Shown here one piece after another: positions 2,386-31,938 of a stretch of DNA of 44,262 nt. This DNA comes from Pseudonocardiaceae bacterium (GTDB lineage Bacteria; Actinomycetota; Actinomycetes; Mycobacteriales; Pseudonocardiaceae): assembly GCA_035640975.1 (NCBI GenBank), contig DASQVB010000492.1, positions 1 through 44,262 on the forward strand, read 5' to 3'. The notes beneath the pieces were generated by a model. The model made no database searches, was not told the DNA's origin, and saw only the letters and a program-made list of their open reading frames with translations. Within the stretch, counting starts at the first letter, position 1, and the number at the start of each line of letters is the position of its first letter. A program made the translations under genes and the position numbers.

Positions 2386-4548
2386 CTAGCCCTCCTGCCC
2401 CGCGGGTGACGGCGTGGACGGCATCGGCTTGCCGTCCTGAGACTGAGGCTTCGCCGCGTTGCCCATGCCAAGCTCCTCGGCCTGCGCGGTCTGAGCCGCT
2501 AGCGCCTGAGCTTGCTGCTGTGCTTCCAGGGACTGAAAGCCGCGGTAGACCTCCATCGCCACCTCGTGCATTTCGGGCTCCAGGTTCGCCGCGTCCGGGG
2601 TCTTCAGCCACGTTTCGAAAACCCACTTCTGGACCTCCACGTTGTCGAACTCGCGTGGCATCCAGCCGGGGATCTCGGCCAGCTTCGGCTCGCCCGTCGC
2701 GACCACGCCGGTCTCCGGGTTCACAACCGGCTGACCGGTTGCCGGATCGATCAACGGCTCCGGTGCCGTCAACATCGGCGCCCCGGTCATCGGATCGATC
2801 TGCGGGCGCTTGGGCATGTCCCAGATCGAGCCATCCAGGATCTTCTGGATGACCATGTTCGCCCGTGCCTTGTCGAACTCAAAGGACTCGATCAACGACT
2901 CCGGGCTGGCGCCGTTCATGGCGATCTCGATCGCCACCTCTGGCCGCATGTAGCCGGGGAAGTTCGCCTGGATCCAGCCGAGCTGCGACAGCATCGCCTG
3001 ACGCGAGCGCGTCTCGATCGTGGCCGGATTCACCGTCACGTCGACCTGGCCCATGATGCTCGCCCCACGGAAGGACTGCACCGGCTCCCAGCCAAACCGA
3101 CCCCGGACCTTCAGGATGCGGTCTTCGTTGTAATGGTGCTGGGCGAGCAGCAGGCAATGCCTCGCGATCGCCGAATCCCACGAGGCCAAATCTTCGAGGA
3201 AGGAGCTCCAGCGGTTCGCCGCCTGCTGGATGACCTGTTGCACCGCGCCGGCCGCGACGTTCGGGGCCACGTCCACGTCCGTGTCGGCGGCGACATAACG
3301 CATGTCCTGAAGCGCCCGGTCCAGAATCTGCATGAGCTGGCCTATCAAGCCAGGGTCCGGGGAGCGCTCCCACTCGGGCTTGTAGCCGCCCACCGGGTTG
3401 TAATAGATGATCTCGCCCGGCTCGTCGGATGGCGCCTGATCCAGCGAGCCCTTCGGGGCCAGCATCTGCAACCGCAAACCGCGGTTCTTTATCTCGATGA
3501 TCTTGTTATACGTGTCATTGAGGGTGCGCTGGAAGTCGATCAGCTCCCACGTCAGGCCCAGGTCGCGCTCGTTGTCGGGGTCCAGCCGGTAGGACAGGCG
3601 GTGGATGCACGGCTCGTCGAGCACTCGCGCCGGCTCGCCCCTGGATTCAGGCTGCACCATCGGATAGTGCATCGGCGGGACGATCATCCGCCCACCCGCG
3701 AGCGTGAGCATCCGGCCATCCCTGTAGCGCGGGGACGGACGCTCGAAGTACAGCGTCACCATCACCATGTCCTCGTCGGGCCTATCGATCGGGATGTCCT
3801 TCGTGGACGCGTCCGGTTGAAGAACGCCGCCGATAAAGCCGTGCATCTGCTGCACCTCGGCGATCGGCCGAGCCGTCTCCCAGGCATGCCAGCGCGAATG
3901 GTAGAACTCGGTCCCGGGCTCCCAGAAGACCTCGTTGCCGTTGCCCACCAGGACCTTGATCTCGCCCTCGCCCACCAGTCGGTCCGGGGAACCGTCCTCA
4001 GGGTCGCCGGGCACCATCCGAAACGGACCCACCATCGGATCGAAGTACGGCAGCGCGAACGCCGAGCCACCCTCGCCGATCGCCGTCGTGACCGCCTTCA
4101 CCCGGGCCTCGCGCAGATACCAGCGCTTGTAGCCCTGGCGCAGCAGCTTGCCCGCAAGCTGCGATGCCTCGGTGTCCTCCGGGTCCGTGGAGCTCGGATT
4201 GACCTCATAGCCGGGTACGCGCGTGGTGCTCGATGACACCTTCGCGTCGACCATCGGCCGGATGAAGTTGTACTTGTTGCGCACCCGATGGCGGGGCTTG
4301 CCGGCGTTCACGCCCGGGGCCGTGAACTGCTGATTCAGAGCGCCCTTGTTATCTAGGTAGAAGTAGGCTTCGCCCTTCAAAAACAGCGAGCACAGCCGCC
4401 GCTTGTGGGCGTCACGCTTCATCCATGCCCGACCACGCTCCAGGCGCTTGCGCACATCCGGCGGAACCTCGATCGGCTTCAACGGCGCGGGCTCGGGAGG
4501 CTCGTCAGCCTTGCCGAGCACGCGGCGGGCACCGTCCAGGACGCTCAC
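2386..4548 (-). CDS. portal protein (putative)
   Basis: 720-aa ORF, the largest in the head module, upstream of scaffold and capsid. ATGA overlap with the upstream gene. Assigned by size and synteny. Confidence 0.6.
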   Translation of the reverse strand: MSVLDGARRVLGKADEPPEPAPLKPIEVPPDVRKRLERGRAWMKRDAHKRRLCSLFLKGEAYFYLDNKGALNQQFTAPGVNAGKPRHRVRNKYNFIRPMVDAKVSSSTTRVPGYEVNPSSTDPEDTEASQLAGKLLRQGYKRWYLREARVKAVTTAIGEGGSAFALPYFDPMVGPFRMVPGDPEDGSPDRLVGEGEIKVLVGNGNEVFWEPGTEFYHSRWHAWETARPIAEVQQMHGFIGGVLQPDASTKDIPIDRPDEDMVMVTLYFERPSPRYRDGRMLTLAGGRMIVPPMHYPMVQPESRGEPARVLDEPCIHRLSYRLDPDNERDLGLTWELIDFQRTLNDTYNKIIEIKNRGLRLQMLAPKGSLDQAPSDEPGEIIYYNPVGGYKPEWERSPDPGLIGQLMQILDRALQDMRYVAADTDVDVAPNVAAGAVQQVIQQAANRWSSFLEDLASWDSAIARHCLLLAQHHYNEDRILKVRGRFGWEPVQSFRGASIMGQVDVTVNPATIETRSRQAMLSQLGWIQANFPGYMRPEVAIEIAMNGASPESLIESFEFDKARANMVIQKILDGSIWDMPKRPQIDPMTGAPMLTAPEPLIDPATGQPVVNPETGVVATGEPKLAEIPGWMPREFDNVEVQKWVFETWLKTPDAANLEPEMHEVAMEVYRGFQSLEAQQQAQALAAQTAQAEELGMGNAAKPQSQDGKPMPSTPSPAGQEG

Positions 4549-7146: not shown

Positions 7147-8721
7147 TCACGACAGGGCACCCATCGGCGGCGCCGGGCCGGGCGGGCCATGAATCTCATG
7201 GCCCTTCAGGGCCCTCCCCGGCCGCCAGCCCAGATTACGCTCCGCTGCCCGGGCTTCCATCTGCGGGTACCAGGGCCGCGCCATGCACTGGTAGCGCAAC
7301 GTGGCGAGCCGGTGAAAGGTGGAGTCGTCGCCTGGCCCGATCGTCTCGTCGTCGTCCATCTCCCAGGCGAACTCGTCGGCCTCGTCGCGCAACCCCAGGC
7401 AGGACTCGAACACGAACAGGCGCTTGTGCTTCAGACGATCACGGATCTGCTGCTGACCCGCCTCACGGTCGCGGTTGCCATTCATCGTGAACAATCCCAG
7501 ACGGGTGAGCTCGGACTGAACAGTGTCCCCCGTGGCCTGCGAACGCTGGCGGGCCGCGGGATCGATGACGAACAGGACATCCTGTCGCGTCAGCCCCCAC
7601 GCGCTCAGCATCCGATCGATGCCCGCCACGTACGCGGAGGGCGTGCCATCCTGGATCAACAGCTCGTCATAGATCCAGTCGGTACCGTGCTGATCGAAGC
7701 CGCCCGCCACCACGGCGGCGTTGCGGATGCCGGGGTCGATGGCCCACACGTGCTCAAGCGTGCGCACGAAGTCCGCGCCACGGGCCGGGATCACCCGGGA
7801 TTCCATCTCGGCGTAGATCAGCCCGGCAGCGTCCATGAAATCACCAAACTCGCGGGCCTGGCGCCAGATGTCGTTCTTGTAGGCCGCCAGGATGCGCTCG
7901 ATCGCCTGGCGCGGCAGCTTCGGGTTGTCGCGCATCGCCCACTTGCAGATCGTGATGTTGGGGTCCTCGCGGTTGCGCCACAGCACGCGCCGGATCCAGC
8001 CGACGTTGCTCTTGAGCGGCGTCATCGTGAACCACTCCGGACCGTCTGATTGCAGCAGCCGCGTTATGCACTCGTCACGGTGGCCCTGCGGCGGTGGCTC
8101 GTCGTAAAGCACCCAGTCGATCGTCGCCGACGTGAGCGTGGACGGGTCCTGCTTGTAGGTCTTGAAAGTGATCGTGGAGCCGCTGGCGAAGGTGAGCTGC
8201 ATCCGCTCGCCGTTGAAAGCCTTGCCCCAGTTGCCTCCCTTGAGGGCCTGCTTGGGACACCACTTCTCGATCGTCGGCTTCAGCGAATCGAAAATCTTGT
8301 CCTCGGTGGGGCACAAAATCCAACCGTGCGAGGGCGCCTCGAACTGCTTGAAGGGCACCAGGTGCCCGGGCACCAGCTCACGCGGCAGGACCTGGATCAG
8401 CGCCTTGACGATGCCGATCGTCGTCTTGCCCGACTGGTTGCCGCAGAGCGCCAGAACCACCTTCGTGATCGCCGCCAGGAAGGCAAGCTGCTCGCGCTTG
8501 CCGTCCGTCGGGCTCGGCTCATGCGGCTTGAAGGCGTTCAGCGGGTTGGCCGCCACGACGCGCTCGATCTCCTTGAGGATCTGCCGCGCCGCCTCCTGCT
8601 TCTCGGGTGGGAGCTTCGACAGATCCACGTCGGGCGCCCCGACGAAGCGCTCTAGCTCCTCGTACTGAGCTGCGATGCGCCGCGCCTGCTCCTTCAAGGT
8701 TGGCTCGGCGAGAGTGGCCAC
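7147..8721 (-). CDS. terL: terminase large subunit
   Basis: Walker A GNQSGKTT, Walker B VLYDE, and RNaseH-like nuclease motifs (WAIDPG, VIDPAA). Start trimmed to GTG 8721, the first in-frame start after the HNH stop at 8742. Confidence 0.85.
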   Translation of the reverse strand: MATLAEPTLKEQARRIAAQYEELERFVGAPDVDLSKLPPEKQEAARQILKEIERVVAANPLNAFKPHEPSPTDGKREQLAFLAAITKVVLALCGNQSGKTTIGIVKALIQVLPRELVPGHLVPFKQFEAPSHGWILCPTEDKIFDSLKPTIEKWCPKQALKGGNWGKAFNGERMQLTFASGSTITFKTYKQDPSTLTSATIDWVLYDEPPPQGHRDECITRLLQSDGPEWFTMTPLKSNVGWIRRVLWRNREDPNITICKWAMRDNPKLPRQAIERILAAYKNDIWRQAREFGDFMDAAGLIYAEMESRVIPARGADFVRTLEHVWAIDPGIRNAAVVAGGFDQHGTDWIYDELLIQDGTPSAYVAGIDRMLSAWGLTRQDVLFVIDPAARQRSQATGDTVQSELTRLGLFTMNGNRDREAGQQQIRDRLKHKRLFVFESCLGLRDEADEFAWEMDDDETIGPGDDSTFHRLATLRYQCMARPWYPQMEARAAERNLGWRPGRALKGHEIHGPPGPAPPMGALS

Positions 8722-8741
8722 GCCAAGATTCTCGCAGCGAG

Positions 8742-9161
8742 CTAGGTCGCCTTCTCGATCAGCGGCAGGATGTACGGTGCCGCCGAAACCAGGCAAAACA
8801 TCAGACCGAACGTGATCACGCTGCGCTTCAGGCGTCGTACGAACCGATTGCCGCGGGTCCGGCGCTTCGCCCGGCGACGCCCGTTCGCGGCGCGGCGCTG
8901 GGCATCCGCAACGGTGTGACAGCCGCCACGGCCGGCGCATAGCACGACGAGGTCCTCGGGCTGCTCGCATCCGAGGTTCTCATAGTTGTTGTGGTGGACC
9001 TCAAGGTGTCGGCCGATGAGGCGCAGCCGCTTGAGCGGTAGGCCGCAGAGCTGGCAGCGGTAGCACGCGCGCTCAAGCGCGGCCTTACATATGCGTCGCC
9101 ATTCTGGCGAGCGCAGATGCGCCTTGTACTGGGCGCTGTGATTGGGGCGCCGACGAAACAT
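8742..9161 (-). CDS. HNH endonuclease with C-terminal hydrophobic helix
   Basis: CYRCQLCG..LEVHHNNY..LVVLCAGRGGCH is an HNH/zinc motif. The last 25 aa contain VITFGLMFCLVSAAPYILPLI (codons GC3-rich, so likely real). 1-nt start/stop overlap with the upstream gene. Confidence 0.8.
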   Translation of the reverse strand: MFRRRPNHSAQYKAHLRSPEWRRICKAALERACYRCQLCGLPLKRLRLIGRHLEVHHNNYENLGCEQPEDLVVLCAGRGGCHTVADAQRRAANGRRRAKRRTRGNRFVRRLKRSVITFGLMFCLVSAAPYILPLIEKAT

Positions 9162-10666
9162 CAGGCACCCCCGTTCAGCAGCAACCGCTTTGCCGCCTCG
9201 GCCTCGGCACGCTGCCTGGCGTCCATCCGCGCCGGCCCCTGAACCTCGCCGCTAAGCACCCGGCGCAAGTGAGCGCCGGGGGACTCGCGCGGCGCGTAAT
9301 GCTCCACCAGCGTCCGGATGCCCTCGTTCGAGACGTAGAATGAGCGGCCCAGTTGCAACTCGGTCTCGCCGTCGATGACGAAGAACGCCTTGCCGGGAAG
9401 ATCCAGCGTCTCGGTCTCGGCGCCGCGCTCACGGGCACCCGGACCCAACGTCATGTCAGCGTGCAGGCGCTCCAATGAGCGGTGCTGGATGCGCTGGGGA
9501 TACAGGTCACGAGTCTCCATCGTGGCCTTGTTGGGGTTCTGCACACAAGAGACAAGCACCACGCCCGGTGCGCGGCCCTGAGTCAGGATCAGCTTCTGCC
9601 AACGGTCGATGTTCTTCTTGGCATCCGAGGTCTCGGCCAGCAGGTTGAGCACCGCCGCCTCATCCACGATCAACAAGATCAGCGGCTCGTCCGGCGTCGG
9701 AACGTGCTTACGAATGCCGTGCTTCTCGCAGTAGGCCATCCGCTTGTCCAGGCGTGCCACGACGTTCTCGATGACTCGCAGCATGTCCTCGATGTCCGAC
9801 TGCGCGTAGCCGCCCCCGAACAGCTCCCGGCCAGGACCCAGCTCCATACCACCCTTCGGGTCGATCGCGTGGACCTCCACCAGACCGTCGCGGATCGCGG
9901 GCGCGATGCCGTGCAGGATCGCCCAGACCAGGACCGACTTGCCCGAGCCGATCTGACCAGCGACGAGCAGATGGCTCCCAAGGATCCGCAACGTCCACGG
10001 ATCGCCGTCCTCGGTCAGGCCGACCGTGACGCGCTCAAGGTCCACGCTCTCAGAGATCGGTGGCGGGGCAATCGGCGTAGCGAGACGATCGACCTGGGGA
10101 AACGACAGCCAGAAACGGTCGTGGCGCTTGAGGTCCTTGTGCACCCGGCACTTCGCTGCGTTGAACGCCACCGCCAGGTCCGGCGCCGCGGCGTACCAGT
10201 CGCCGATCTGCCCGCGCGCCGGCTTGACCAGGATGCGATCCGTGTACGGCGTGAACTCGAACTTGACCATCCGCGGGATCTTGTCGCGGCCGTGTGGGAT
10301 AGGGATGTGCAGGAAGTGATGGCGCATCGTGGCGTTCCACTTGCGGCGGTAGATGAGATGCTTGCGGCGCAGGCCACCTACCCGCCAACCCGCGACAACC
10401 TCGTAGGACTCGCGGTCAGCCAGGCGCCATACGACAAGACCCAGGATCGTGGACAGCAGGACCCATTGGACGAGCGCGTAGACATTGCTGGCGCCCACCC
10501 AGAGACACATCAGGATCACGGCCGCCAGGGTCGCGATGCCGACGGTTCGCCGCAAAGCCCACGCCAAAAAGAACAACGGCCAGACGATGACCAGCAGACT
10601 GACGTACACGATCGTGGCCGTCAGCGGGTCCCGCGGCGTCCTGCCCAGATCCTTGGGAAGCCTCAT
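9161..10666 (-). CDS. FtsK/SpoIIIE-family DNA translocase, membrane-anchored (TraB-like)
   Basis: N-terminal 3-4 hydrophobic helices, Walker A GQIGSGKS, Walker B LILLIVDEAA. Start set to ATG 10666 (ATGA overlap with the upstream stop) rather than the track GTG at 10696. Confidence 0.8.
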   Translation of the reverse strand: MRLPKDLGRTPRDPLTATIVYVSLLVIVWPLFFLAWALRRTVGIATLAAVILMCLWVGASNVYALVQWVLLSTILGLVVWRLADRESYEVVAGWRVGGLRRKHLIYRRKWNATMRHHFLHIPIPHGRDKIPRMVKFEFTPYTDRILVKPARGQIGDWYAAAPDLAVAFNAAKCRVHKDLKRHDRFWLSFPQVDRLATPIAPPPISESVDLERVTVGLTEDGDPWTLRILGSHLLVAGQIGSGKSVLVWAILHGIAPAIRDGLVEVHAIDPKGGMELGPGRELFGGGYAQSDIEDMLRVIENVVARLDKRMAYCEKHGIRKHVPTPDEPLILLIVDEAAVLNLLAETSDAKKNIDRWQKLILTQGRAPGVVLVSCVQNPNKATMETRDLYPQRIQHRSLERLHADMTLGPGARERGAETETLDLPGKAFFVIDGETELQLGRSFYVSNEGIRTLVEHYAPRESPGAHLRRVLSGEVQGPARMDARQRAEAEAAKRLLLNGGA

Positions 10667-11196
10667 GCGACGCGATAGTCCTTCAGTCGATGCCACGCAA
10701 TGCGCCGACGCTTAGAGCCCACGCACACGATGTACTGGCCGGGCTCGATGTAAACCACCTCGCGGGGCCGCGCATGGCCGATACCTCCGACGATCCGGTC
10801 GCCGACCCTAAACGGACAGGCATCGACCTGATCCTGGAAGCGCGGACCGGTATGCCACGGGTCGTAGTCGGCAACCCAGCCTCGCGTCCTGACATCGGCC
10901 CTGGCAACCAGTTCGAGCAGGTTCACGCCGTCACGCAGGGCGCAGTGGCCCATGACAGCGAGGCGTTCCCGCGCGTGCTGGCGTTTGCCACGGCACATGA
11001 AGATCACCTCGTCCAACGGGAGACCGCCGATCGCGTCGGGCGGGTCGCGCATCAGGTCCGCTAGATCGAGCTCCTCGGCATCGATGCGCTGACGCAAGGC
11101 CATGCGTTCCCGGCGGCGCCGGAGGGACAATTCCAGGCCGTGGACCGCATGGGAGGGGGCGCCTGGTGAGACTCGGGGTGTAGCCTCGGCTTGCAT
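10663..11196 (-). CDS. hypothetical protein, first gene of the long leftward block
   Basis: 177 aa, with SD-like GTGAGG upstream of ATG 11196. No motif recognised; the start is uncertain (an internal ATG is possible). Confidence 0.5.
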   Translation of the reverse strand: MQAEATPRVSPGAPSHAVHGLELSLRRRRERMALRQRIDAEELDLADLMRDPPDAIGGLPLDEVIFMCRGKRQHARERLAVMGHCALRDGVNLLELVARADVRTRGWVADYDPWHTGPRFQDQVDACPFRVGDRIVGGIGHARPREVVYIEPGQYIVCVGSKRRRIAWHRLKDYRVA

Positions 11197-11221
11197 TCGG
11201 AAACCTCACTTCCGGGTGTGG

Positions 11222-11253
11222 GCCGCGGCGGTTTCGGGCGATCCCGCCGCGGC
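11222..11253. repeat. 10-bp perfect inverted repeat GCCGCGGCGG / CCGCCGCGGC with a 12-nt spacer
   Basis: Read directly. It lies in the presumed 5' leader of the leftward block. Confidence 0.85.
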
Positions 11254-11263
11254 TGAACTTCAT

Positions 11264-11279
11264 GTAGGGGGAACCCTAC
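11264..11279. promoter_or_regulatory. GTAGGG-N4-CCCTAC palindrome overlapping a minus-strand TGG-TAGGGT extended -10-like element
   Basis: Read directly. TAGGGT fits TANNNT and is preceded by TGG; no good -35. Candidate promoter/operator for the leftward packaging/structural block. Confidence 0.25.
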
Positions 11280-11292
11280 CAGACCAGGCCCG

Positions 11293-11372
11293 CGAAAATC
11301 CCCCCTCCCGACTCACTCGCCACTTCGGGCCAAGGCCACTCAGTGGCTCGTTCGGGGGAGGGGGGATTTTCG
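11293..11372. repeat. 17-bp perfect inverted repeat (CGAAAATCCCCCCTCCC ... GGGAGGGGGGATTTTCG) with a 46-nt spacer and nested stem
   Basis: Arms at 11293..11309 and 11356..11372. Nested 6-bp stem GCCACT (11319..11324) / AGTGGC (11342..11347). Confidence 0.85.
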
Positions 11373-11389
11373 TTCGCGAAGCGTTCGCG
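11371..11389 (+). repeat. direct repeat CGTTCGCG x2 with 11-nt period
   Basis: Copies at 11371..11378 and 11382..11389. Part of six same-strand GTTCGC copies between 11372 and 11993. Confidence 0.7.
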
Positions 11390-11855
11390 CGCCGCAGGCG
11401 CCGATTTTTTCGCCTTCGCGCAGCAGTGGCAGCGCGTTTGACGGCAGACATCACTAGTGGTGTCCAGTCCTAGCCTTTGAGCCTCGCTCCACAGCTCCTT
11501 GACTATCACTGAGTAAAGCGGGCAGGGAGAACCAAAGCTAGACCTAGAGTTCTTTGCTTCGGCTGATCCCTGTCCCATGAGCACTTAGACCACTCGCTGG
11601 GCGAGGTTCGCTCGGATCTGAGTCGAGCTCCTGAAGCTCTATTCGGACGCGCTGTTCGCCGTGCGGTTGATCGCGTCCCGGGGGCTTCCGTGGTGCCTGT
11701 CACGACTGTCCGCTCCCTGTCGGCGGGTGTCGCATGGTTTCGTCGGGCGCCTGGTATGTCACGCTCACCCCCACCAGGTTGGGGGTGTGAGGCGCGCCGT
11801 AAGGTGGTATGCTCCACCGGCGCGCTTCAGCAACGCGGAGCTTACCAGAGCTCAG

Positions 11856-11893
11856 CCGAGACCGCCACCCTGTCTGGCGGTCTCGGTCGTTTC
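11856..11893 (+). terminator. intrinsic-terminator-like hairpin A
   Basis: 12-bp stem CCGAGACCGCCA / TGGCGGTCTCGG, 7-nt loop, tail TCGTTTC. The same GTCGTT-type tail follows the terminators at 19311, 19751 and 21109. Confidence 0.5.
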
Positions 11894-11944
11894 GGGGTAG
11901 CCTTTGGTTTGAGGCTCACTTCCCAGGGCCTCGTGTTCGCGCAT

Positions 11945-11983
11945 CGAGGCCGCTATTCCCCTGGCGGCCTCGGTCGTTGTGTG
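11945..11983 (+). terminator. intrinsic-terminator-like hairpin B
   Basis: 9-bp stem CGAGGCCGC / GCGGCCTCG, 10-nt loop, tail GTCGTTGTGTG. Confidence 0.45.
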
Positions 11984-12004
11984 ACCGGTTCGCACACAGT
12001 TCTC

Positions 12005-12033
12005 TTGACAGGTGGGCAACCATGTGGGATTAT
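12005..12033 (+). promoter_or_regulatory. promoter P0: TTGACA-N17-(TGG)GATTAT, 6 nt before ATG 12040 (leaderless)
   Basis: Read directly: -35 at 12005..12010 and -10 at 12028..12033 (fits TANNNT). Confidence 0.6.
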
Positions 12034-12039
12034 TCCTAC

Positions 12040-12309
12040 ATGAAGACCGCCACTACCACCGCCCGAAAGGACATGATGAGCTTCTTCAATCGCGACCCTC
12101 TCCATCTGAAGAGGTTCGCCACTACGGCCCGCCAGCGGATCACGATCGCCGAGTCGCCCGACGAGCTCAAGACCCTGATCGGCGAGATCGACTCGATCCT
12201 TGTCGCCTTCCCGGCCGGTGGCCTGACGGACACGCAGCTCGCCACGCTCGCGGCGCTGCGCAGCCGCGCCGCCGCCAAGCTCGCCAAGCTCGGCAAGCTT
12301 GAGCGCTGA
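12040..12309 (+). CDS. hypothetical protein (89 aa), leaderless start
   Basis: Track ORF 11809..12309 trimmed to ATG 12040, which sits 7 nt after the -10 of P0. Sequence begins MKTATTTARKDMMSFF... Confidence 0.6.
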   Translation: MKTATTTARKDMMSFFNRDPLHLKRFATTARQRITIAESPDELKTLIGEIDSILVAFPAGGLTDTQLATLAALRSRAAAKLAKLGKLER

Positions 12310-12349
12310 TCTTCTCTTACGACTCAACCGCGACGCAGGAGGTAGCAGC

Positions 12350-12560: not shown

Positions 12561-12600
12561 GCCACGGGGCGGGGCGGTCAACCGGTCGCCCCGCCGTGGC
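12561..12600 (+). other. imperfect GC hairpin (7+7 bp stem, 2-nt bulge) between genes
   Basis: GCCACGG-GG-CGGGGCG / CGCCCCG-CCGTGGC read directly. No U-tract follows. Confidence 0.4.
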
Positions 12601-12619
12601 ACTCTATCGGAGGACCGAC

Positions 12620-12925
12620 ATGGAAACCGCCACGACGAACACCGTGCGCTGCCTTGCCAGTGAGATCGAGGAGCTCGCCGAGCGAGCACGCGCCGCCGGA
12701 CGCATGAGCGCCACGGCCGATCACATCCAGACGCTGGAAAACCCCCTGGGCGACGGCCTGGTATTCCAGATCCACGGCGCCGAGTTGTTCGCGGTGCCGT
12801 CCGACACGACTAGCAGGATCTACAGCGTGATTCTGGTCCCCGGCGCCAAGCCGTCCTGCAACTGCCCTGCGACCGTACCGTGCAAGCACATCCGCCGCGT
12901 GCTCGCCGCAAGGGCTGGTTTCTGA
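12620..12925 (+). CDS. SWIM-type zinc-finger protein
   Basis: SD GGAGGA upstream of ATG 12620. The C-terminal SCNCPATVPCKHI matches the CxCx(n)CxH SWIM signature. Confidence 0.6.
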   Translation: METATTNTVRCLASEIEELAERARAAGRMSATADHIQTLENPLGDGLVFQIHGAELFAVPSDTTSRIYSVILVPGAKPSCNCPATVPCKHIRRVLAARAGF

Positions 12926-13176
12926 TGCGCGCTCGGGAGTTCCTGACCGTCCGCGAGACGGCTCAACAGCTCGGCGTACACGAGAACACGGTTCGGAACT
13001 GGGAAACGCGTGGCGTGCTGCACGGCATCAAGCTCCCCGGCTCGGGATTCCGGCGCTTCCCGCGCGAAGACATCGAGCGCATGCGGCGCGAGATGCTCGC
13101 GAGCTATGCGCCGACGACAAAGCTGCCTGACGAGCCCCGGAAGGCAGCCGACGGCGCCGTCGGCTGCCTTCTCTAG
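12925..13176 (+). CDS. helix-turn-helix DNA-binding protein (MerR/excisionase-like HTH)
   Basis: TGATG overlap with the upstream stop. MRAREFLTVRETAQQLGVHENTVRNWETRGVLHGIKLPGSGFRRF is the classic excisionase-family HTH pattern. Confidence 0.65.
   Translation: MRAREFLTVRETAQQLGVHENTVRNWETRGVLHGIKLPGSGFRRFPREDIERMRREMLASYAPTTKLPDEPRKAADGAVGCLL
13140..13171. repeat. 32-bp perfect palindrome GAAGGCAGCCGACGGC|GCCGTCGGCTGCCTTC
   Basis: Read directly. It encodes the last residues (KAADGAVGCLL) of the HTH gene and ends 5 nt before its stop. Confidence 0.9.
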
Positions 13177-15573: not shown

Positions 15574-15753
15574 TCATCGCACACGCTCCACGGGATCGGG
15601 GAGGCGCAGGAGCGCACGCATGTCGCGTACGCCCAGGTCCTCCTGCATCTCACGTAGATGCATGAGGAGGTAGCCCCAGGTCATCGGTCGACCACGGCTA
15701 CCCAGGCGGTAGACGAGCTGGTAGCGCGGCTCGAACTGCGGCGTGTGGCTCAT
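15574..15753 (-). CDS. hypothetical protein (59 aa)
   Basis: C-terminal part of track ORF 15574..16248. ATG 15753 overlaps the upstream stop (ATGA). Confidence 0.45.
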   Translation of the reverse strand: MSHTPQFEPRYQLVYRLGSRGRPMTWGYLLMHLREMQEDLGVRDMRALLRLPDPVERVR

Positions 15754-16112
15754 GGCTTCCTCTCGTGGCGGTTGGCCTTCTTCTCGATGAGCTCGTTCAA
15801 GCGCTCTTGGCGCTCGCGGTCCCAGTCGGCCTTGGTGCCGCCGGGTGGCTTGGGTGCGGGCGGCGGCACTGGCTCGGGCGCTCGAAGCGGAGTCGACCCA
15901 GCGCTGTCCTCTGACGACCCCGCTTCCAATGCCTGCTCCAGCTCCTGCACCTCGGCGATCACGCCACGCTGCCCATGGAGCTCCGGGTGGCTGAGCATGA
16001 ACTCGCACGCCAGGCTGACCCACTGGGAGAAGGACCGCGCGTCGTCGCCGGCCACCGCGGCGATTCGCTCGGGCAGATTGTGGGGTGTGAAATAGACAGA
16101 CTTGCGCGGCAT
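15750..16112 (-). CDS. ribbon-helix-helix-like DNA-binding protein (putative)
   Basis: The N-terminus MPRKSVYFTPHNLPERIAAVAG..SFSQWVSLACEFML resembles CopG/Arc-type RHH. A Pro/Ala-rich linker and basic tail follow. Confidence 0.4.
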   Translation of the reverse strand: MPRKSVYFTPHNLPERIAAVAGDDARSFSQWVSLACEFMLSHPELHGQRGVIAEVQELEQALEAGSSEDSAGSTPLRAPEPVPPPAPKPPGGTKADWDRERQERLNELIEKKANRHERKP

Positions 16113-16118
16113 CTGAAG

Positions 16119-16838
16119 TTACGAGGGGGCGGTCTGACCGTTGATCACCACGACGCGCTGATCCTCGCCGAGCGCGACCATCCGCCCGAGCAGATCCATC
16201 GCGGACCGCTTGACTTCGGTGCGTCCCGGCGTGAGCCTCTCGACCCACAGTGCATCGAGGCGTTCGATGTCATCCCACTTGGCATCGGCAGCGGTAGCGG
16301 CGTCTACGGCAGCGGCGGCGGCGTCTACGGCGGTAGCGGCGTCTACGGCGTCTACGGCGGCGATGGCTACGGTGTCGGCGGGCTTAACCTTCAAAGTCTC
16401 CACAACGGCTGCGCGCACCCGTCCAGTACGAGCGGACGCCGGGTCGGTGATCTCCGGGAGCGCCCGCATCTCTGCGGCGGCGTCCTGTGCGCCCGCGATC
16501 TCAAGCCACGTCGGGAGGGCGACACGGACCGTCCAATCCGTCGCCATATATCCGCGGGCCTGCTGGTAGCCGTCGCCAGCGGTACCGATGATGCGCGACA
16601 GAAACGGCTTGAGTGCTTCGCGGCCCTCCGAATCCGTCAGGTCGTTGTAGCGCCGCAAGAACGCGGCAAGCACGGGACAGAAACAGACCGGGCGGTCAGA
16701 CCAGGGCTCGCCGGCGACGTAGGACGCGAGCTCCATGATGCACGCGCCATCTTCTAGGTCATCGTGAGGCCCAGCCTTGAGCTCGATGGAGAGGGCCTCG
16801 TCGAGGCGGTTACGGCTGATGTGGATGGTTTTGGTCAT
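16119..16838 (-). CDS. hypothetical protein (239 aa) with internal Ala/Val/Asp repeat
   Basis: Track ORF with a conserved-looking ACIMELASYVAGEPWSDRPVCFCPVL segment. Function unknown. Confidence 0.6.
   Translation of the reverse strand: MTKTIHISRNRLDEALSIELKAGPHDDLEDGACIMELASYVAGEPWSDRPVCFCPVLAAFLRRYNDLTDSEGREALKPFLSRIIGTAGDGYQQARGYMATDWTVRVALPTWLEIAGAQDAAAEMRALPEITDPASARTGRVRAAVVETLKVKPADTVAIAAVDAVDAATAVDAAAAAVDAATAADAKWDDIERLDALWVERLTPGRTEVKRSAMDLLGRMVALGEDQRVVVINGQTAPS
16290..16378 (-). repeat. imperfect tandem repeat, four copies of GCGTCTACGGC (codes A-V-D/A-T-A repeats)
   Basis: GGCGTCTACGGC at 16299, 16320 and 16338, plus an overlapping copy at 16348. Read directly. Confidence 0.8.
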
Positions 16839-18084: not shown

Positions 18085-18383
18085 GCTCTTGCCTCCTCGC
18101 GTTCGTGGACCCAATAGGGAGCGCCATCCTCGCCAGGACCGCATTCGATCCATGGCCAGCCGTCGTAAGGCTCCTCGATGCCATCAGCCTCACACTCGTC
18201 TGCGTACTCCTGGTGGTAGCGGTAGGCGCCACGGCGAACCTTCGTCTCCGTGAAAGAATCGCCCGACTGCGATGCGAAGAACGCACGCGCTTTGCCTCGC
18301 GTGTCCTCGGGACCGTCGATGCGAAGAGCCATGATGTGGCCGTCTTCGTTGTGTAGCTCGCCGGGTGGTATCTGCTCGCTCAT
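18081..18383 (-). CDS. hypothetical acidic protein (100 aa), leaderless start
   Basis: ATG 18383 lies 7 nt downstream of a TACAAT -10. Confidence 0.6.
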   Translation of the reverse strand: MSEQIPPGELHNEDGHIMALRIDGPEDTRGKARAFFASQSGDSFTETKVRRGAYRYHQEYADECEADGIEEPYDGWPWIECGPGEDGAPYWVHEREEARA

Positions 18384-18390
18384 GCCCCAG

Positions 18391-18420
18391 ATTGTAGCAC
18401 AAGGTAGGAGAAGGTGTCAC
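18391..18420 (-). promoter_or_regulatory. promoter: GTGACA-N18-(TGC)TACAAT, 7 nt before ATG 18383
   Basis: Plus strand reads ATTGTA at 18391..18396 and TGTCAC at 18415..18420. Confidence 0.55.
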
Positions 18421-18441
18421 ACCCGTTGGGTGGGAAATCTC

Positions 18442-18498
18442 GGGGAGGGACCCCTAAAAGTTCACGCGCACGAGCTCGGCCACTCCACTCCCCTCCCC
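18442..18498. repeat. 8-bp inverted repeat GGGGAGGG / CCCTCCCC with a 41-nt spacer, upstream of the 18391 promoter
   Basis: Arms at 18442..18449 and 18491..18498. Same G-run/C-run flavour as the 17-bp inverted repeat at 11293. Confidence 0.6.
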
Positions 18499-18966
18499 CT
18501 TAAGCACCGCCGGCCAGGGTCACGCGAGAGCCATGGGATGGGCACGGGGAACGCGACAGCCCGAGCACAGCACCCCATCCTGCGTCTCGACCACAGCTCG
18601 CGAGGAGGGGGAACATAGTGTGGCTCGTGGCCCTTGTGCGGTGAGTGATGCCGTGCCGAAACCCCAGCATGGGACAGGCGGATGCGACCCTCGTGCGCGG
18701 GCGCGACGCCATACCCGGAGAGGTTCCGGTCGTCGGTCGCGTGCGATGACGCCTCATTATGCGCCATCGTTTCGTGTCTCGTTCCGCGTTAGTCGGCGGT
18801 TCGGGCTGTGGTTCGTTCTTGGGTCGTGGGCTCCGTGAGGGCGAAGCGTCTGCGAAGGGCTTGGGTCTCGTTGTCTCTCATTGCCTTGTCTTTCAGGAGG
18901 GCTTCATGGCCACGGGTTTGTGTCTGGGCCACGGGGCCACGTCCTGACCTTTAGACCAGTATGGGC

Positions 18967-18995
18967 TTGACAGACGCACAAGACCATGAGAGGAT
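18967..18995 (+). promoter_or_regulatory. promoter P1: TTGACA-N17-(TGA)GAGGAT, 6 nt before ATG 19002
   Basis: Read directly. Part of a roughly 85-bp cassette repeated at 19341..19424. Confidence 0.6.
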
Positions 18996-19001
18996 GCTCG
19001 C

Positions 19002-19277
19002 ATGACCAACGACTCAACCGCCACCGCCACGAGCGACACCTACGTGCAGAAGGCCAACGAGCGCCGCGCCGCCCGGCGCGGCTACCTTGTGTTTGCTACC
19101 GACCCCTCTCGAAGCCCTGACGAGCCCGGATATCGCGAGGTGTTCGCGACCGAGGCCAAGACACCGGCCCGAGCGGCTGCCAAGGTCCGCCCACTCGCCG
19201 CTGGTCGGCGGCTGCGCACCTACCTGGCCACCGGCACCTACCGCAACGAGCTCGCCGAAGCTCGCTGGGTCGCGTAG
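19002..19277 (+). CDS. hypothetical protein (91 aa), leaderless
   Basis: Track ORF beginning MTNDSTATATSD... Confidence 0.6.
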   Translation: MTNDSTATATSDTYVQKANERRAARRGYLVFATDPSRSPDEPGYREVFATEAKTPARAAAKVRPLAAGRRLRTYLATGTYRNELAEARWVA

Positions 19278-19310
19278 CTTTTGGCCCTAGCCTTCGAGTC
19301 ACGGGGAACG

Positions 19311-19338
19311 CGAAGGGCTGCCACTGTGCAGCCTTTCG
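19311..19338 (+). terminator. intrinsic terminator T1
   Basis: 11-bp stem (one G-U pair) CGAAGGGCTGC / GCAGCCTTTCG, loop CACTGT, tail TCGTTTGTGTCT. Confidence 0.6.
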
Positions 19339-19386
19339 TCGTTTGTGTCTGAGGCCGTATCCTCCTGACCTTTCGACCAGTGTGGC

Positions 19387-19415
19387 TTGACAAGCGCACA
19401 AGGGCATGAGAGGCT
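19387..19415 (+). promoter_or_regulatory. promoter P2: TTGACA-N17-(TGA)GAGGCT
   Basis: Near-identical to P1; 6 nt before ATG 19422. Confidence 0.6.
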
Positions 19416-20714: not shown

Positions 20715-20753
20715 ATGAACTCAACCGCCACCCGTAAGGAAGTGACAGCATGA
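20715..20753 (+). CDS. leaderless mini-ORF (12 aa, MNSTATRKEVTA) coupled to the next gene
   Basis: The TGA overlaps ATG 20750 (ATGA). The mini-ORF contains the SD AAGGAAG for the downstream gene. Confidence 0.3.
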   Translation: MNSTATRKEVTA

Positions 20754-21058
20754 GCAACGCGACGATTCCGAGGGCGAAGCTGGTGGACGCGATCGAGGCT
20801 GGCATCGCCAGGGCCAGGCACCTGGCCGGCGAGGGCAGCGGCCCGACCGACGAGGATTGCGCCAAGTTGCGCAGGGTCGGTCGTGAGGCCAAGGTGGTCG
20901 CGACAGGCTCGTACACGACCGGGGCTGGTTGCCCCATCGTGCGGGCGTTCCGAGCGAGCTGGTACGGGCTGTCGTGGGATGGCTATTTCATCGTCGCCTA
21001 CGACGCGCAACTGCGCGGCGTAGTGCCGGGCCGCGGCGAGTACACCGTCGTCGACTAG
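20750..21058 (+). CDS. hypothetical protein (102 aa)
   Basis: Track ORF. Confidence 0.6.
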   Translation: MSNATIPRAKLVDAIEAGIARARHLAGEGSGPTDEDCAKLRRVGREAKVVATGSYTTGAGCPIVRAFRASWYGLSWDGYFIVAYDAQLRGVVPGRGEYTVVD

Positions 21059-21108: not shown

Positions 21109-21140
21109 GAGCCCCGCCAGCGAGCGGGGCTCAGTCGTTC
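21109..21140 (+). terminator. intrinsic terminator T3
   Basis: 9-bp stem GAGCCCCGC / GCGGGGCTC, loop CAGCGA, tail AGTCGTTC running into the -35 of P4. Confidence 0.55.
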
Positions 21141-31158: not shown

Positions 31159-31197
31159 CGGGTGGTCCTTCCGATGGTGGTCCGTGTAGGGAAAACC

Positions 31198-31225
31198 ACT
31201 CTACGCCTTTTCAGGAGTAGGACAA
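31198..31225 (-). promoter_or_regulatory. candidate promoter TTGTCC-N16-TAGAGT
   Basis: In the relatively AT-rich 93-nt gap 31159..31251. Weak -35. Confidence 0.25.
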
Positions 31226-31251
31226 GTACGACATTCGTCTAGGTGTAGGTT

Positions 31252-31938
31252 TCATCCGCAGATCCGCAGTAGGTTGAGCAGCGTTGCCAGGTTCGACGTG
31301 CAGAGACCCGTCAACAGGCCGCCGACCTTCTGCTCAAGCCCCGCCAAGCGATTGTCCAAACCATCGACCACGGCGCTGTCCACACTGTCGCCCGCCTTGC
31401 CAGGCGGTCCCCGCAGTCCCTGCGGTCCCCGGGGACCGACCACACTCCGGCCGCGCGGTCCCCGTAGTCCGGGGGCGCCCGGGCGCCCATCAATCGCCGG
31501 CCGTGGAGTGGTCAACTGGCGCCGGGTCTTGCGTCGTGGAGGAGCAGGCACAATCTGTCCCTCGGTCACGGTCAGCACCCGTCGTACCGTGGCCGTGAAC
31601 TGCTCGCGGCACTCCGCGGTGCGGGCGCATACACGCAGGGCCTCGCGCGATAGCCGGGCCAGGTCAGCGGCGCTTGGGGACTCAAGCTTTATCAACCGGA
31701 CCAACAGGGCGGTGTTCTCACGCAGTCGCTCTTCGCGCTGCTCGGCCAGCCCCTCCCGGTTGAGGTGGCTCACGTATACGACGGACCCGAACAGTAGGCC
31801 GAGTGCCACCGCGCCGATCACTACGTGCACGCCCGTGAAGCGAACAGGTCGCTGGAGATGGCGCCAGGTCAGGGCGAGCACCATCCCGCCGGCGACGACG
31901 ACGACGCCTAGAAGCCACCACCACGGTAGGCCGAACAT
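31252..31938 (-). CDS. membrane-anchored collagen-like-repeat protein
   Basis: 228 aa with two N-terminal TM helices (LPWWWLLGVVVVAGGMVLAL; VHVVIGAVALGLLFGSVVYV) and a coiled coil. G-X-Y run GRPGAPGLRGPRG..GPRGPQGLRGPPGKAGD (nt 31390..31488), then a fibre-like C-terminus. Confidence 0.6.
   Translation of the reverse strand: MFGLPWWWLLGVVVVAGGMVLALTWRHLQRPVRFTGVHVVIGAVALGLLFGSVVYVSHLNREGLAEQREERLRENTALLVRLIKLESPSAADLARLSREALRVCARTAECREQFTATVRRVLTVTEGQIVPAPPRRKTRRQLTTPRPAIDGRPGAPGLRGPRGRSVVGPRGPQGLRGPPGKAGDSVDSAVVDGLDNRLAGLEQKVGGLLTGLCTSNLATLLNLLRICG

Follow-up and report, generated by a model that had tools for sequence, protein, structure and literature searches.

A candidate non-coding transcription-control module at the early–late junction in the genome of an uncultured soil phage

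Results

Genomic setting and non-coding character of the region

The window analyzed here (C492; 44,262 bp) is one whole contig among the 524 of a metagenome-assembled genome and constitutes a phage genome (66% GC; mean of the contig, 66.5%), the source of which is an uncultured soil phage. We focus on the region at positions 11197–12039, a divergent junction between the leftward operon for packaging and structural proteins (late operon) and a rightward, early-type leaderless operon, which starts at 12040 behind the predicted promoter P0. As read from its sequence, the region is probably a conserved non-coding module for transcription control, dividing the early arm of the genome from the late arm, and includes a non-coding transcript, or late-operon leader, of ~540 nt, running from a predicted promoter, PM, to a long hairpin, H2. 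The coordinates of these and all other elements named below are collected in Table 1.

In a preliminary description of the sequence, no convincing coding frame had been seen between the two operons, and base composition bears this out. The GC-frame plot is flat over ~11200–12040, whereas the flanking genes have GC contents at third codon positions (GC3) of 0.8–0.9. The codon score, that is, the in-frame versus off-frame codon log-likelihood calculated for open reading frames (ORFs) of at least 55 codons, is negative for all such ORFs of the region, compared to +46, a strong coding signal, for the flanking gene 12040–12309. Alignments of the region to its relatives contain frame-breaking indels, and small conserved ORFs in its 2 central modules, M4 and M5, were rejected because the indels shift every frame. 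Gene callers have placed ORFs over the homologous stretch in 2 relatives (288 aa at L012:6083–6949 and 336 aa at L133:1869–2879), the GC contents of which are flat across the 3 codon positions (0.62–0.68), unlike those of the real neighboring genes; these are probably spurious calls, and the homologous stretch is non-coding there too. Covariance models of Rfam yielded no hits at the gathering score in the whole window, the best sub-threshold match within 11050–12150 scoring 18.5 bits against a threshold of 65.3, and a search for tRNA and tmRNA genes found none.

Inverted repeats are far more abundant in the region than expected by chance. The contig contains 14 perfect inverted repeats with arms of at least 10 bp and loops of at most 60 nt, 3 of which, including the longest (17 bp), fall inside the region, which represents 1.9% of the sequence; in 2000 dinucleotide shuffles of the region, a 17-bp arm never appeared, and a 12-bp arm appeared 15 times. 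The structures listed previously were recovered, namely, the 10-bp perfect inverted repeat H1, the 17-bp perfect inverted repeat H2 with its 46-nt spacer, the palindrome GTAGGG-N4-CCCTAC (11264–11279), which overlaps the predicted promoter PL (TGGTAGGGT) on the minus strand, the stems at 11766–11787 and 11788–11829, and 2 hairpins with GTCGTT tails (11856–11886 and 11945–11972). The lower-GC stretch was recovered as well, with 11446–11595 being the lowest-GC 150-bp window of the contig (52.7% versus the mean of 66.5%). Two other items stood in part. The repeated sequence CGTTCGCG is present at 11371 and 11382 but is not above chance, with 15 copies in the contig when the complement is counted. 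The GC stem followed by T6 is also present, and the T6 itself is rare, the run at 11405 being the only plus-strand run of at least 5 T in the whole contig, but the stem alone is no better than shuffles (z = −0.7). Compared to shuffles, folding is favorable for H1 (z = −4.4), H2 (−5.8 on the plus and −6.1 on the minus strand), the 134-nt stretch 11762–11895 (−6.4), T1 (−4.8), and the T2 region (−4.1); the middle part, 11440–11739, does not fold better than shuffles. The whole predicted PM RNA folds with z = −6.0, mainly owing to its terminal hairpins.

Relatives of the region

A collection of cultured phages contained no DNA similar to the region, and the terminase of the phage is only ~24% identical to any cultured-phage terminase, whereas the terminase and the FtsK-like protein both have many metagenomic relatives in a large protein collection. 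Seven loci on contigs anchored on the FtsK-like protein (L004, L011, L012, L013, L014, L131, and L133) were compared with the region, and in all of them the parts upstream of the FtsK-like/terminase block follow the order seen here. Nucleotide similarity (blastn) was detected in 5 of the 7: L012 and L014 match 11193–11513 at 73–74% (E 1e-39 to 1e-41), with a second L012 match at 11806–12056, L011 matches 11416–11497 and 11806–11891, L013 matches 11194–11260, and L131 matches M4 (see below). L004 and L133 contain the same parts with no detectable primary similarity to this phage. Two further relatives have gene-free gaps of 590–615 bp upstream of the FtsK gene. Searches anchored on the terminase (IMG/VR, JGI metagenome contigs, and GTDB genomes) did not provide a close locus that could be used, and in 3 of the contigs anchored in this way (L005, L009, and L137) the upstream parts are laid out differently. 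Exact-pattern scans of IMG/VR with conserved 15- to 20-mers produced chance matches or none, and BLAST of M4 against 400 genomes of the phylum produced short chance matches only. The covariation observations reported below are based on 3–8 sequences and were judged without a statistical test.

Promoter-like and terminator-like elements

The region holds 4 promoter-like elements, comprising P0 and 3 of the 5 contig sites of the extended −10 motif TGNTANNNT (TGnTAnnnT). Across both strands of the contig, 23 such sites would be expected from base composition, corresponding to an ~five-fold depletion, and all 5 observed sites are at intergenic promoter positions. Three of them are PL, PM, and PR2; outside the region, one belongs to the leftward block, at its leaderless promoter (18383), and one forms the −10 of P4. 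The depletion is the same in L004, L011, L012, L131, and L133, where most matches are at predicted promoter sites, after T1 or H2, and often lie 6–7 nt before a leaderless ATG. It thus appears to be a practical, near-diagnostic marker of promoters in this phage group.

The positions of PM and PL are conserved as those of extended −10 promoters, and PR2 keeps its hexamer only. The PM homolog is the sole TGNTANNNT site in 15.5 kb of L012 and occupies the same place (TGGTAAGCT), in a 22-nt block that is identical in the 2 phages. L011 has TGTTAGGCT at the corresponding place, after T1, and a TAnnnT follows T1 by 1–12 nt in L131 and L133 and by ~45 nt in L004. No ATG follows PM, which is the reason to predict that PM starts an untranslated RNA. 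The identical PL motif, TGGTAGGGT, is present 13 nt after H2 in L004, and TAnnnT is found at the PL-aligned place in L012, L014, and L013, whereas a leaderless arrangement, TGCTACnnT-6nt-ATG, lies ~52 nt after H2 in L011, L131, and L133. L012 and L011 retain the PR2 hexamer (TATGCT or TAAGAT) but not the TG, and PR2 appears to be a weaker candidate than PM and PL.

Hairpins H1, H2, T1, and T2 all keep their pairing while their sequences vary across relatives. On the rightward side, T1-like hairpins were found in 6 loci, with stems that differ yet are always complementary (CCGAGACCGCCA, CCGGGACCGCCA, CCAACGCCGCCA, CAAGGCCCGCT, ACGAAGGGCCCGC, and CACGGCCCGCC); the stems covary in L012, L011, L131, L133, and L004, and a plus-strand TCGTT directly after the stem is kept in all. 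T1 and T2 share an 18-nt repeat (94%). Because the same TCGTT tail is common to hairpins ending the rightward genes 19002–19277 and 20750–21058 (the latter hairpin at 21109–21132), the best reading of T1 and T2 is as plus-strand terminators, of a TCGTT-tail type that belongs to the phage itself. T1, T2, and H2 have the stem-loop stability of intrinsic terminators, with pairing kept through compensatory changes; the tail of T1 and T2 is TCGTT(T), not a canonical U-run, and a simple terminator scan called none of the 3 hairpins. Just beyond T2, P0 is one of 5 contig promoters that share TTGACA-RGCGSRCAA, and L012 and L013 retain its −35, spacer, −10, and leaderless ATG.

On the leftward side, a perfect inverted repeat of 15–24 bp occupies the H2 place in all 8 loci, in each case with a different arm sequence, a C-rich first arm, and a loop of 21–46 nt. 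We infer that H2 is a terminator or insulator, which would end the PM transcript just upstream of PL. H1 is present in L012, L014, and L013, with 2 compensatory double changes and no broken pairs in L012, and L004 has an analogous hairpin. The start of the late operon, GAGGTT(T)CCGAATG, is shared without change by L012, L014, and L013, and its conserved ATG opens different ORFs, namely, a 177-aa orphan here, an ~57-aa hydrophobic protein in L012, and a 16-codon mini-ORF coupled to the FtsK gene in L013. A further ATG, at 11263, mirrors the P0 start through an 11-mer inverted repeat; it was rejected as a conserved leaderless start, being absent in L012, L014, and L013.

The body of the predicted leader

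The predicted PM transcript would open with 2 adjacent stem-loops, b and a. In L012 and L011, hairpin b has pairs in which both sides are changed, but also some broken pairs, and hairpin a carries one compensatory change in L131. M4 matches L131:2352–2647 at 81.5% over 298 bp (blastn, E 1.6e-78), or 86% over aligned columns, although the 2 phages share only 47% identity in their FtsK proteins. The alignment combines perfect runs (38, 30, and 28 nt) with indels of 1, 1, 8, and 23 nt. At the M4 place, L012 and the L014/L011 pair each have an unrelated sequence of similar length. M5 is 73–80% identical (blastn) to its counterparts in L012, L014, and L011, with a 1-nt indel between relatives inside the conserved sequence; the block, conserved in 4 phages, is followed by the GC hairpin and the A/T run. 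A sigma-70-type −35/−10 promoter was sought on both strands of M5, and no convincing conserved −10 was found. The sequence GCGCCTGCGGCG and a run of T4–T6 are conserved in L012, L014, L013, and L004; this stem and run look like a terminator on the plus strand, and like an A-rich linker and hairpin within the PM transcript on the minus strand.

Small ORFs are inserted between PM and M4 on the late-gene strand of 2 relatives. The one in L131 (1857–2322) has an HNH motif (CxxC...HH, recognized by eye, with no profile check) and coding-like GC contents at the 3 codon positions, and the one at the same position in L004 (3231–3440) resembles a zinc ribbon (CxxC...CxxC, also read by eye), the gene caller having placed a 117-aa ORF on the opposite strand instead. 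Judging from these ORFs, the minus strand of the interval appears to be expressed.

The GTTCGC hexamer

The preliminary description drew attention to an over-represented hexamer, GTTCGC. Its 6 copies are where they had been reported (6 observed versus 0.68 expected, nominal P 8e-5), but the over-representation is ordinary, as 48 of 206 windows of the same size hold some hexamer that is enriched to at least this degree. The copies have no common flanking consensus (n = 6), and only one of the 6 (11606) is conserved in an aligned relative. The over-representation is background noise, and GTTCGC was rejected as an iteron, being neither enriched beyond background nor conserved. Local hexamer pile-ups stronger than that of GTTCGC exist elsewhere in the contig: CTACGG occurs 5 times within 15615–16250, and ACTGTG occurs 4 times within 18990–19400, in the P1/P2 cassettes.

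Features of the surrounding genome

Genes annotated in the left arm, on the minus strand, are given in Table 1. No small terminase was recognized, and no lysogeny genes were found among the contig ORFs scanned against Pfam and PHROGs. The 177-aa orphan, the first gene of the operon, has no homolog except itself in a collection of 5.8 billion proteins, in which its start is placed at 11103 (146 aa); the ATG at 11196 carries the conserved Shine–Dalgarno (SD) sequence. The orphan resembles an insertion between the conserved leader and the FtsK-like gene. An 89-aa neighbor has no homologs in IMG/VR.

When the contig ends (1–20 and 44243–44262) are joined, they form a 13-bp hairpin (GGCGCGGCCCGGC joined to TGCCCC GCCGGGCCGCGCC), which lies a short way downstream of the capsid gene. 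The map is therefore probably complete and either circular or circularly permuted, the assembler having broken it inside a terminator-like stem.

On the rightward side of the genome, the first codons after the leaderless ATGs of P0–P3 (12040–12065, 19002–19030, 19422–19440, and 20715–20735) share (C)AACCGCCAC(C), suggesting that each cassette was copied along with its start or, alternatively, that selection acts on a downstream element. The second-longest perfect inverted repeat of the contig is a perfect 32-bp palindrome at 13140–13171 (GAAGGCAGCCGACGGC followed by GCCGTCGGCTGCCTTC, with no spacer), at the 3′ end of the HTH_17/MerR-like gene 12880–13176, which belongs to the P0 operon, as does a SWIM-like gene (12596–12925). 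A second long interval (~580 bp; 18384–18966), containing G-rich runs (GGGGGAGGGGGAGTGGAGTGG), separates the leftward leaderless promoter (GTGACA-18-TACAAT-7-ATG at 18383) from P1. Finally, 2 DnaA-box-like 9-mers (TTGTCCAAA and CTGTCCACA, with 1 mismatch each) lie 24 bp apart at 31352–31384, adjoining a low-GC window (31169–31318) and near the maximum of the cumulative GC skew (31306).

Table 1. Predicted elements of the region 11197–12039 and annotated genes of the left arm
Feature	Description	Position	Strand
P0	TTGACA-17-GATTAT (with TG), 6 nt, ATG; predicted leaderless promoter of the rightward operon	12005..12042	+
T2	Second hairpin with GTCGTTGTGTG tail; conserved in L012	11945..11984	+
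T1	12-bp perfect hairpin with TCGTTTCGG tail; intrinsic-terminator-like	11856..11895	+
PM	Extended −10 TGGTAAGCT directly after T1; putative promoter of the leftward non-coding transcript	11839..11847	-
PR2	Extended −10 TGGTATGCT in the loop of hairpin b; putative start of an ~75-nt rightward RNA ending at T1	11805..11813	+
Stem-loops b and a	Two adjacent stem-loops (b, 11829–11788; a, 11787–11766); predicted 5′ end of the PM transcript	11766..11829	-
M4	Non-coding module at the center, swappable from phage to phage; the lowest-GC stretch of the contig lies within it	11505..11775	-
M5	Sequence-conserved non-coding block of ~130 nt, e.g., TCGGCGCCTGCGGCGCGCGAA and GCTGTGGAGCGAGGC	11380..11513	-
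GC stem and T6	5-bp GC stem (GCGCC-GCA-GGCGC), then T6	11389..11410	+
H2	17-bp perfect inverted repeat, 46-nt structured spacer; C-rich 5′ arm, G-rich 3′ arm	11293..11372	
PL	Extended −10 TGGTAGGGT; putative late-operon promoter, 14 nt after H2	11273..11281	-
H1	10-bp GC hairpin in the 5′ leader of the late operon	11222..11253	-
Late-operon start	ATG 11196–11194; SD GAGG 11207–11204 in the loop of a CGGAA/UUCCG stem (11214–11198)	11194..11214	-
177-aa orphan	First gene of the late operon	10663-11196	-
FtsK/SpoIIIE-like ATPase		9161-10696	-
HNH		8742-9161	-
Large terminase		7147-8970	-
Portal		2386-4548	-
Major capsid protein		27-1289	-

Discussion

A scheme for transcription from the region

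The simplest account of the region is that the module is built from the same hairpin-then-promoter cassettes that occur elsewhere in this phage, placed in this case on both strands. P0 would fire rightward into the leaderless early operon, with T2 and T1 insulating it and ending a short (~75 nt) rightward RNA from PR2. PM, an extended −10 promoter without a −35 directly behind T1, would fire leftward, producing an untranslated RNA of ~540 nt that consists of the 2 stem-loops at its 5′ end, the swappable M4, the conserved 3′ block M5, and the long hairpin H2, where the transcript would be stopped or attenuated. The late operon would then be started by PL, 14 nt past H2, or reached by read-through from PM, in either case via the H1 leader and the SD-ATG start. 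If the elements work in this way, the region would set the timing and strength of packaging and structural gene transcription. The candidate controls are H2, where transcripts would terminate or read through, and the face-to-face promoters PM and PR2, which could interfere with one another.

The regulatory hub proposed in the preliminary description is supported by the tail-sharing, covarying terminator hairpins, by the concentration of 3 of the 5 extended −10 motifs in the region, and by the recurrence of T1- and H2-adjacent motifs in relatives. The rightward non-coding transcript that had been deduced from the terminators was right in one respect, in that a non-coding RNA is likely, but the main transcript would more likely run leftward, from PM to H2, with the rightward RNA being only ~75 nt long.

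Several observations weigh against the scheme. Every RNA start and end in it is read from the sequence, and the promoter and terminator functions are assigned from the rarity, position, and conservation of motifs. H2 has a short U-rich tail (AUUUUCG) only in some relatives, such a tail being absent on either strand in L011, L131, and L133. The asymmetry of G-U versus A-C changes gives no consistent strand for hairpin b, on which this phage and L012 disagree, and the terminator-like T6 site on the plus strand has no identified promoter upstream of it. M4 and M5 fold no better than shuffles, and their predicted pairs are invariant, giving no covariation signal; the 2 modules are constrained in sequence and not visibly in structure, and may serve either as sequence elements of an RNA or as binding sites on the DNA. 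In addition, the high identity between M4 and L131 rests on 2 sequences and could reflect recent exchange instead of constraint.

Alternative explanations

The PM-to-H2 stretch might itself be a functional phage regulatory RNA of ~540 nt, outside Rfam, governing the early-to-late switch in cis. For example, polymerase would then be made to read through H2 into the 24-kb late operon, or the RNA would act by interference with PR2, and the differing central modules would be specificity variants between related phages; we put this forward tentatively and consider it doubtful. Alternatively, only the promoter and terminator cassettes might be functional, M4 and M5 being mosaic recombination filler conserved by recent common descent or exchange. 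Filler would be consistent with the swapping of the central module between otherwise related phages, with the small genes inserted in the same interval of L131 and L004, and with the absence of structural and covariation signals from both modules. It accords poorly, however, with the conservation of M5 in 4 phages, where a 21-nt run is invariant and the FtsK proteins are 62–76% identical, and with the M4 of L131, which is much closer than the FtsK protein and contains perfect runs unlikely under a uniform divergence of 14%. Pure filler between the cassettes is hard to square with these invariant runs in M4 and M5, and we regard it as unlikely.

Sequence conservation without a structural signal would also suit protein-binding DNA, and the region could be, or also contain, a replication origin or a pac/cos packaging site, in which M4 and M5 bind proteins and the low-GC stretch, the lowest of the contig, acts as an unwinding element. 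The location directly upstream of the packaging genes, in a genome without a recognized small terminase, and the presence of GACAGG 3 times within the perfectly conserved runs of M4 are in line with this, as is the detrended cumulative GC skew, with its minimum at 12329 and maximum at 31306. The minimum is, however, broad (about 11.5–14.5 kb) and small in amplitude, and the contig break is not in the region. Furthermore, the iteron-type origin or packaging site suggested in the preliminary description is not borne out: GTTCGC fails as an iteron, the direct-repeat families of the region have 2 copies only and none has at least 3, no initiator gene was recognized next to the region, and no DnaA-box-like site (at most 1 mismatch) lies within it, the nearest pair being at 31352 and 31376. 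Close relatives replace the central module with unrelated sequence and show no obvious linked protein swap. An origin is kept possible only by the broad skew minimum near 12.3 kb and the low-GC stretch, and is improbable overall. Least probable is that the region encodes small proteins missed by the composition tests, for instance from the near-leaderless ATG 11263, located 9 nt after the −10 of PL, or from a 32-codon ORF (11343–11441) with a slightly positive codon score. Leaderless mini-ORFs do occur elsewhere in this phage group, but ATG 11263 is missing in L012, L014, and L013 and opens a 110-codon frame with a score of −50, the 32-codon ORF falls within an arm of H2 and the conserved GC hairpin, and indels break every frame in the alignments.

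A control module with an untranslated leader thus seems to us the preferable reading of the region. Long gene-free stretches of phage genomes are usually left unannotated, and the comparison of 8 uncultured soil phages resolves one of them into defined parts: ahead of the packaging and structural genes lie promoters and terminators, together with a hairpin in the leader and what is probably a long non-coding transcript. These parts are concrete, testable elements for late-gene control in actinobacterial phages, in which late regulation is poorly understood. The comparison also corrects 2 points, the caller ORFs of 288 and 336 codons being probably spurious and the hexamer that had drawn attention being background noise.

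Comparison with known systems

In the same genome, the terminator-promoter cassettes of the rightward block, P1–P4, likewise combine a GC hairpin bearing a TCGTT tail with a promoter close by and a leaderless start. T2–P0 is a typical member of this set. PM and PL differ from it in lacking the TTGACA-RGCGSRCAA −35/spacer signature and in being extended −10 elements right behind a hairpin, on the other strand.

The late-gene leader of phage lambda, PR′-qut-tR′ (6S RNA), is read through by Q antitermination. It resembles the layout predicted for the region in having a promoter, an untranslated transcript, and a strong terminator directly upstream of the operon for lysis, packaging, and structural proteins, and the order PM, ~540 nt, H2, and late operon, conserved in 8 loci, corresponds to such a leader in architecture only. 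The leader predicted here would be about 3 times longer and is followed by a separate promoter, PL, after the hairpin; a Q-like gene or qut-like site was not identified, no dedicated test for an antiterminator having been made, and antitermination is only one possible reading. The 2 stem-loops at the 5′ end of the predicted PM transcript bear a formal resemblance only to put RNA. The face-to-face promoters of coliphages 186 and P2 serve as switches, a geometry that can give transcriptional interference. The transcripts of PM and PR2 would similarly converge, overlapping by ~12 nt, but the TG of PR2 is present in this phage only, and repressor or Apl/Cox-like partners have not been assigned. 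No cognate factors were identified, so the resemblances to lambda and to 186 and P2 are functional analogies only.

[quoted passage not shown] As here, an ORF-free stretch of ~500 nt separates a promoter from the first gene of an operon next to a divergent early/late junction, and relatives differ by small indels. The 2 regions share no sequence similarity (the phage collection gave no match). Moreover, the Cluster A region leads the early operon at the genome end, whereas the region described here would lead the late operon, its RNA being predicted from sequence only, and is closed by a long covarying hairpin that is followed by a second promoter. The Cluster A non-coding region appears to be the nearest actinobacteriophage precedent for the module, analogous rather than homologous to it.

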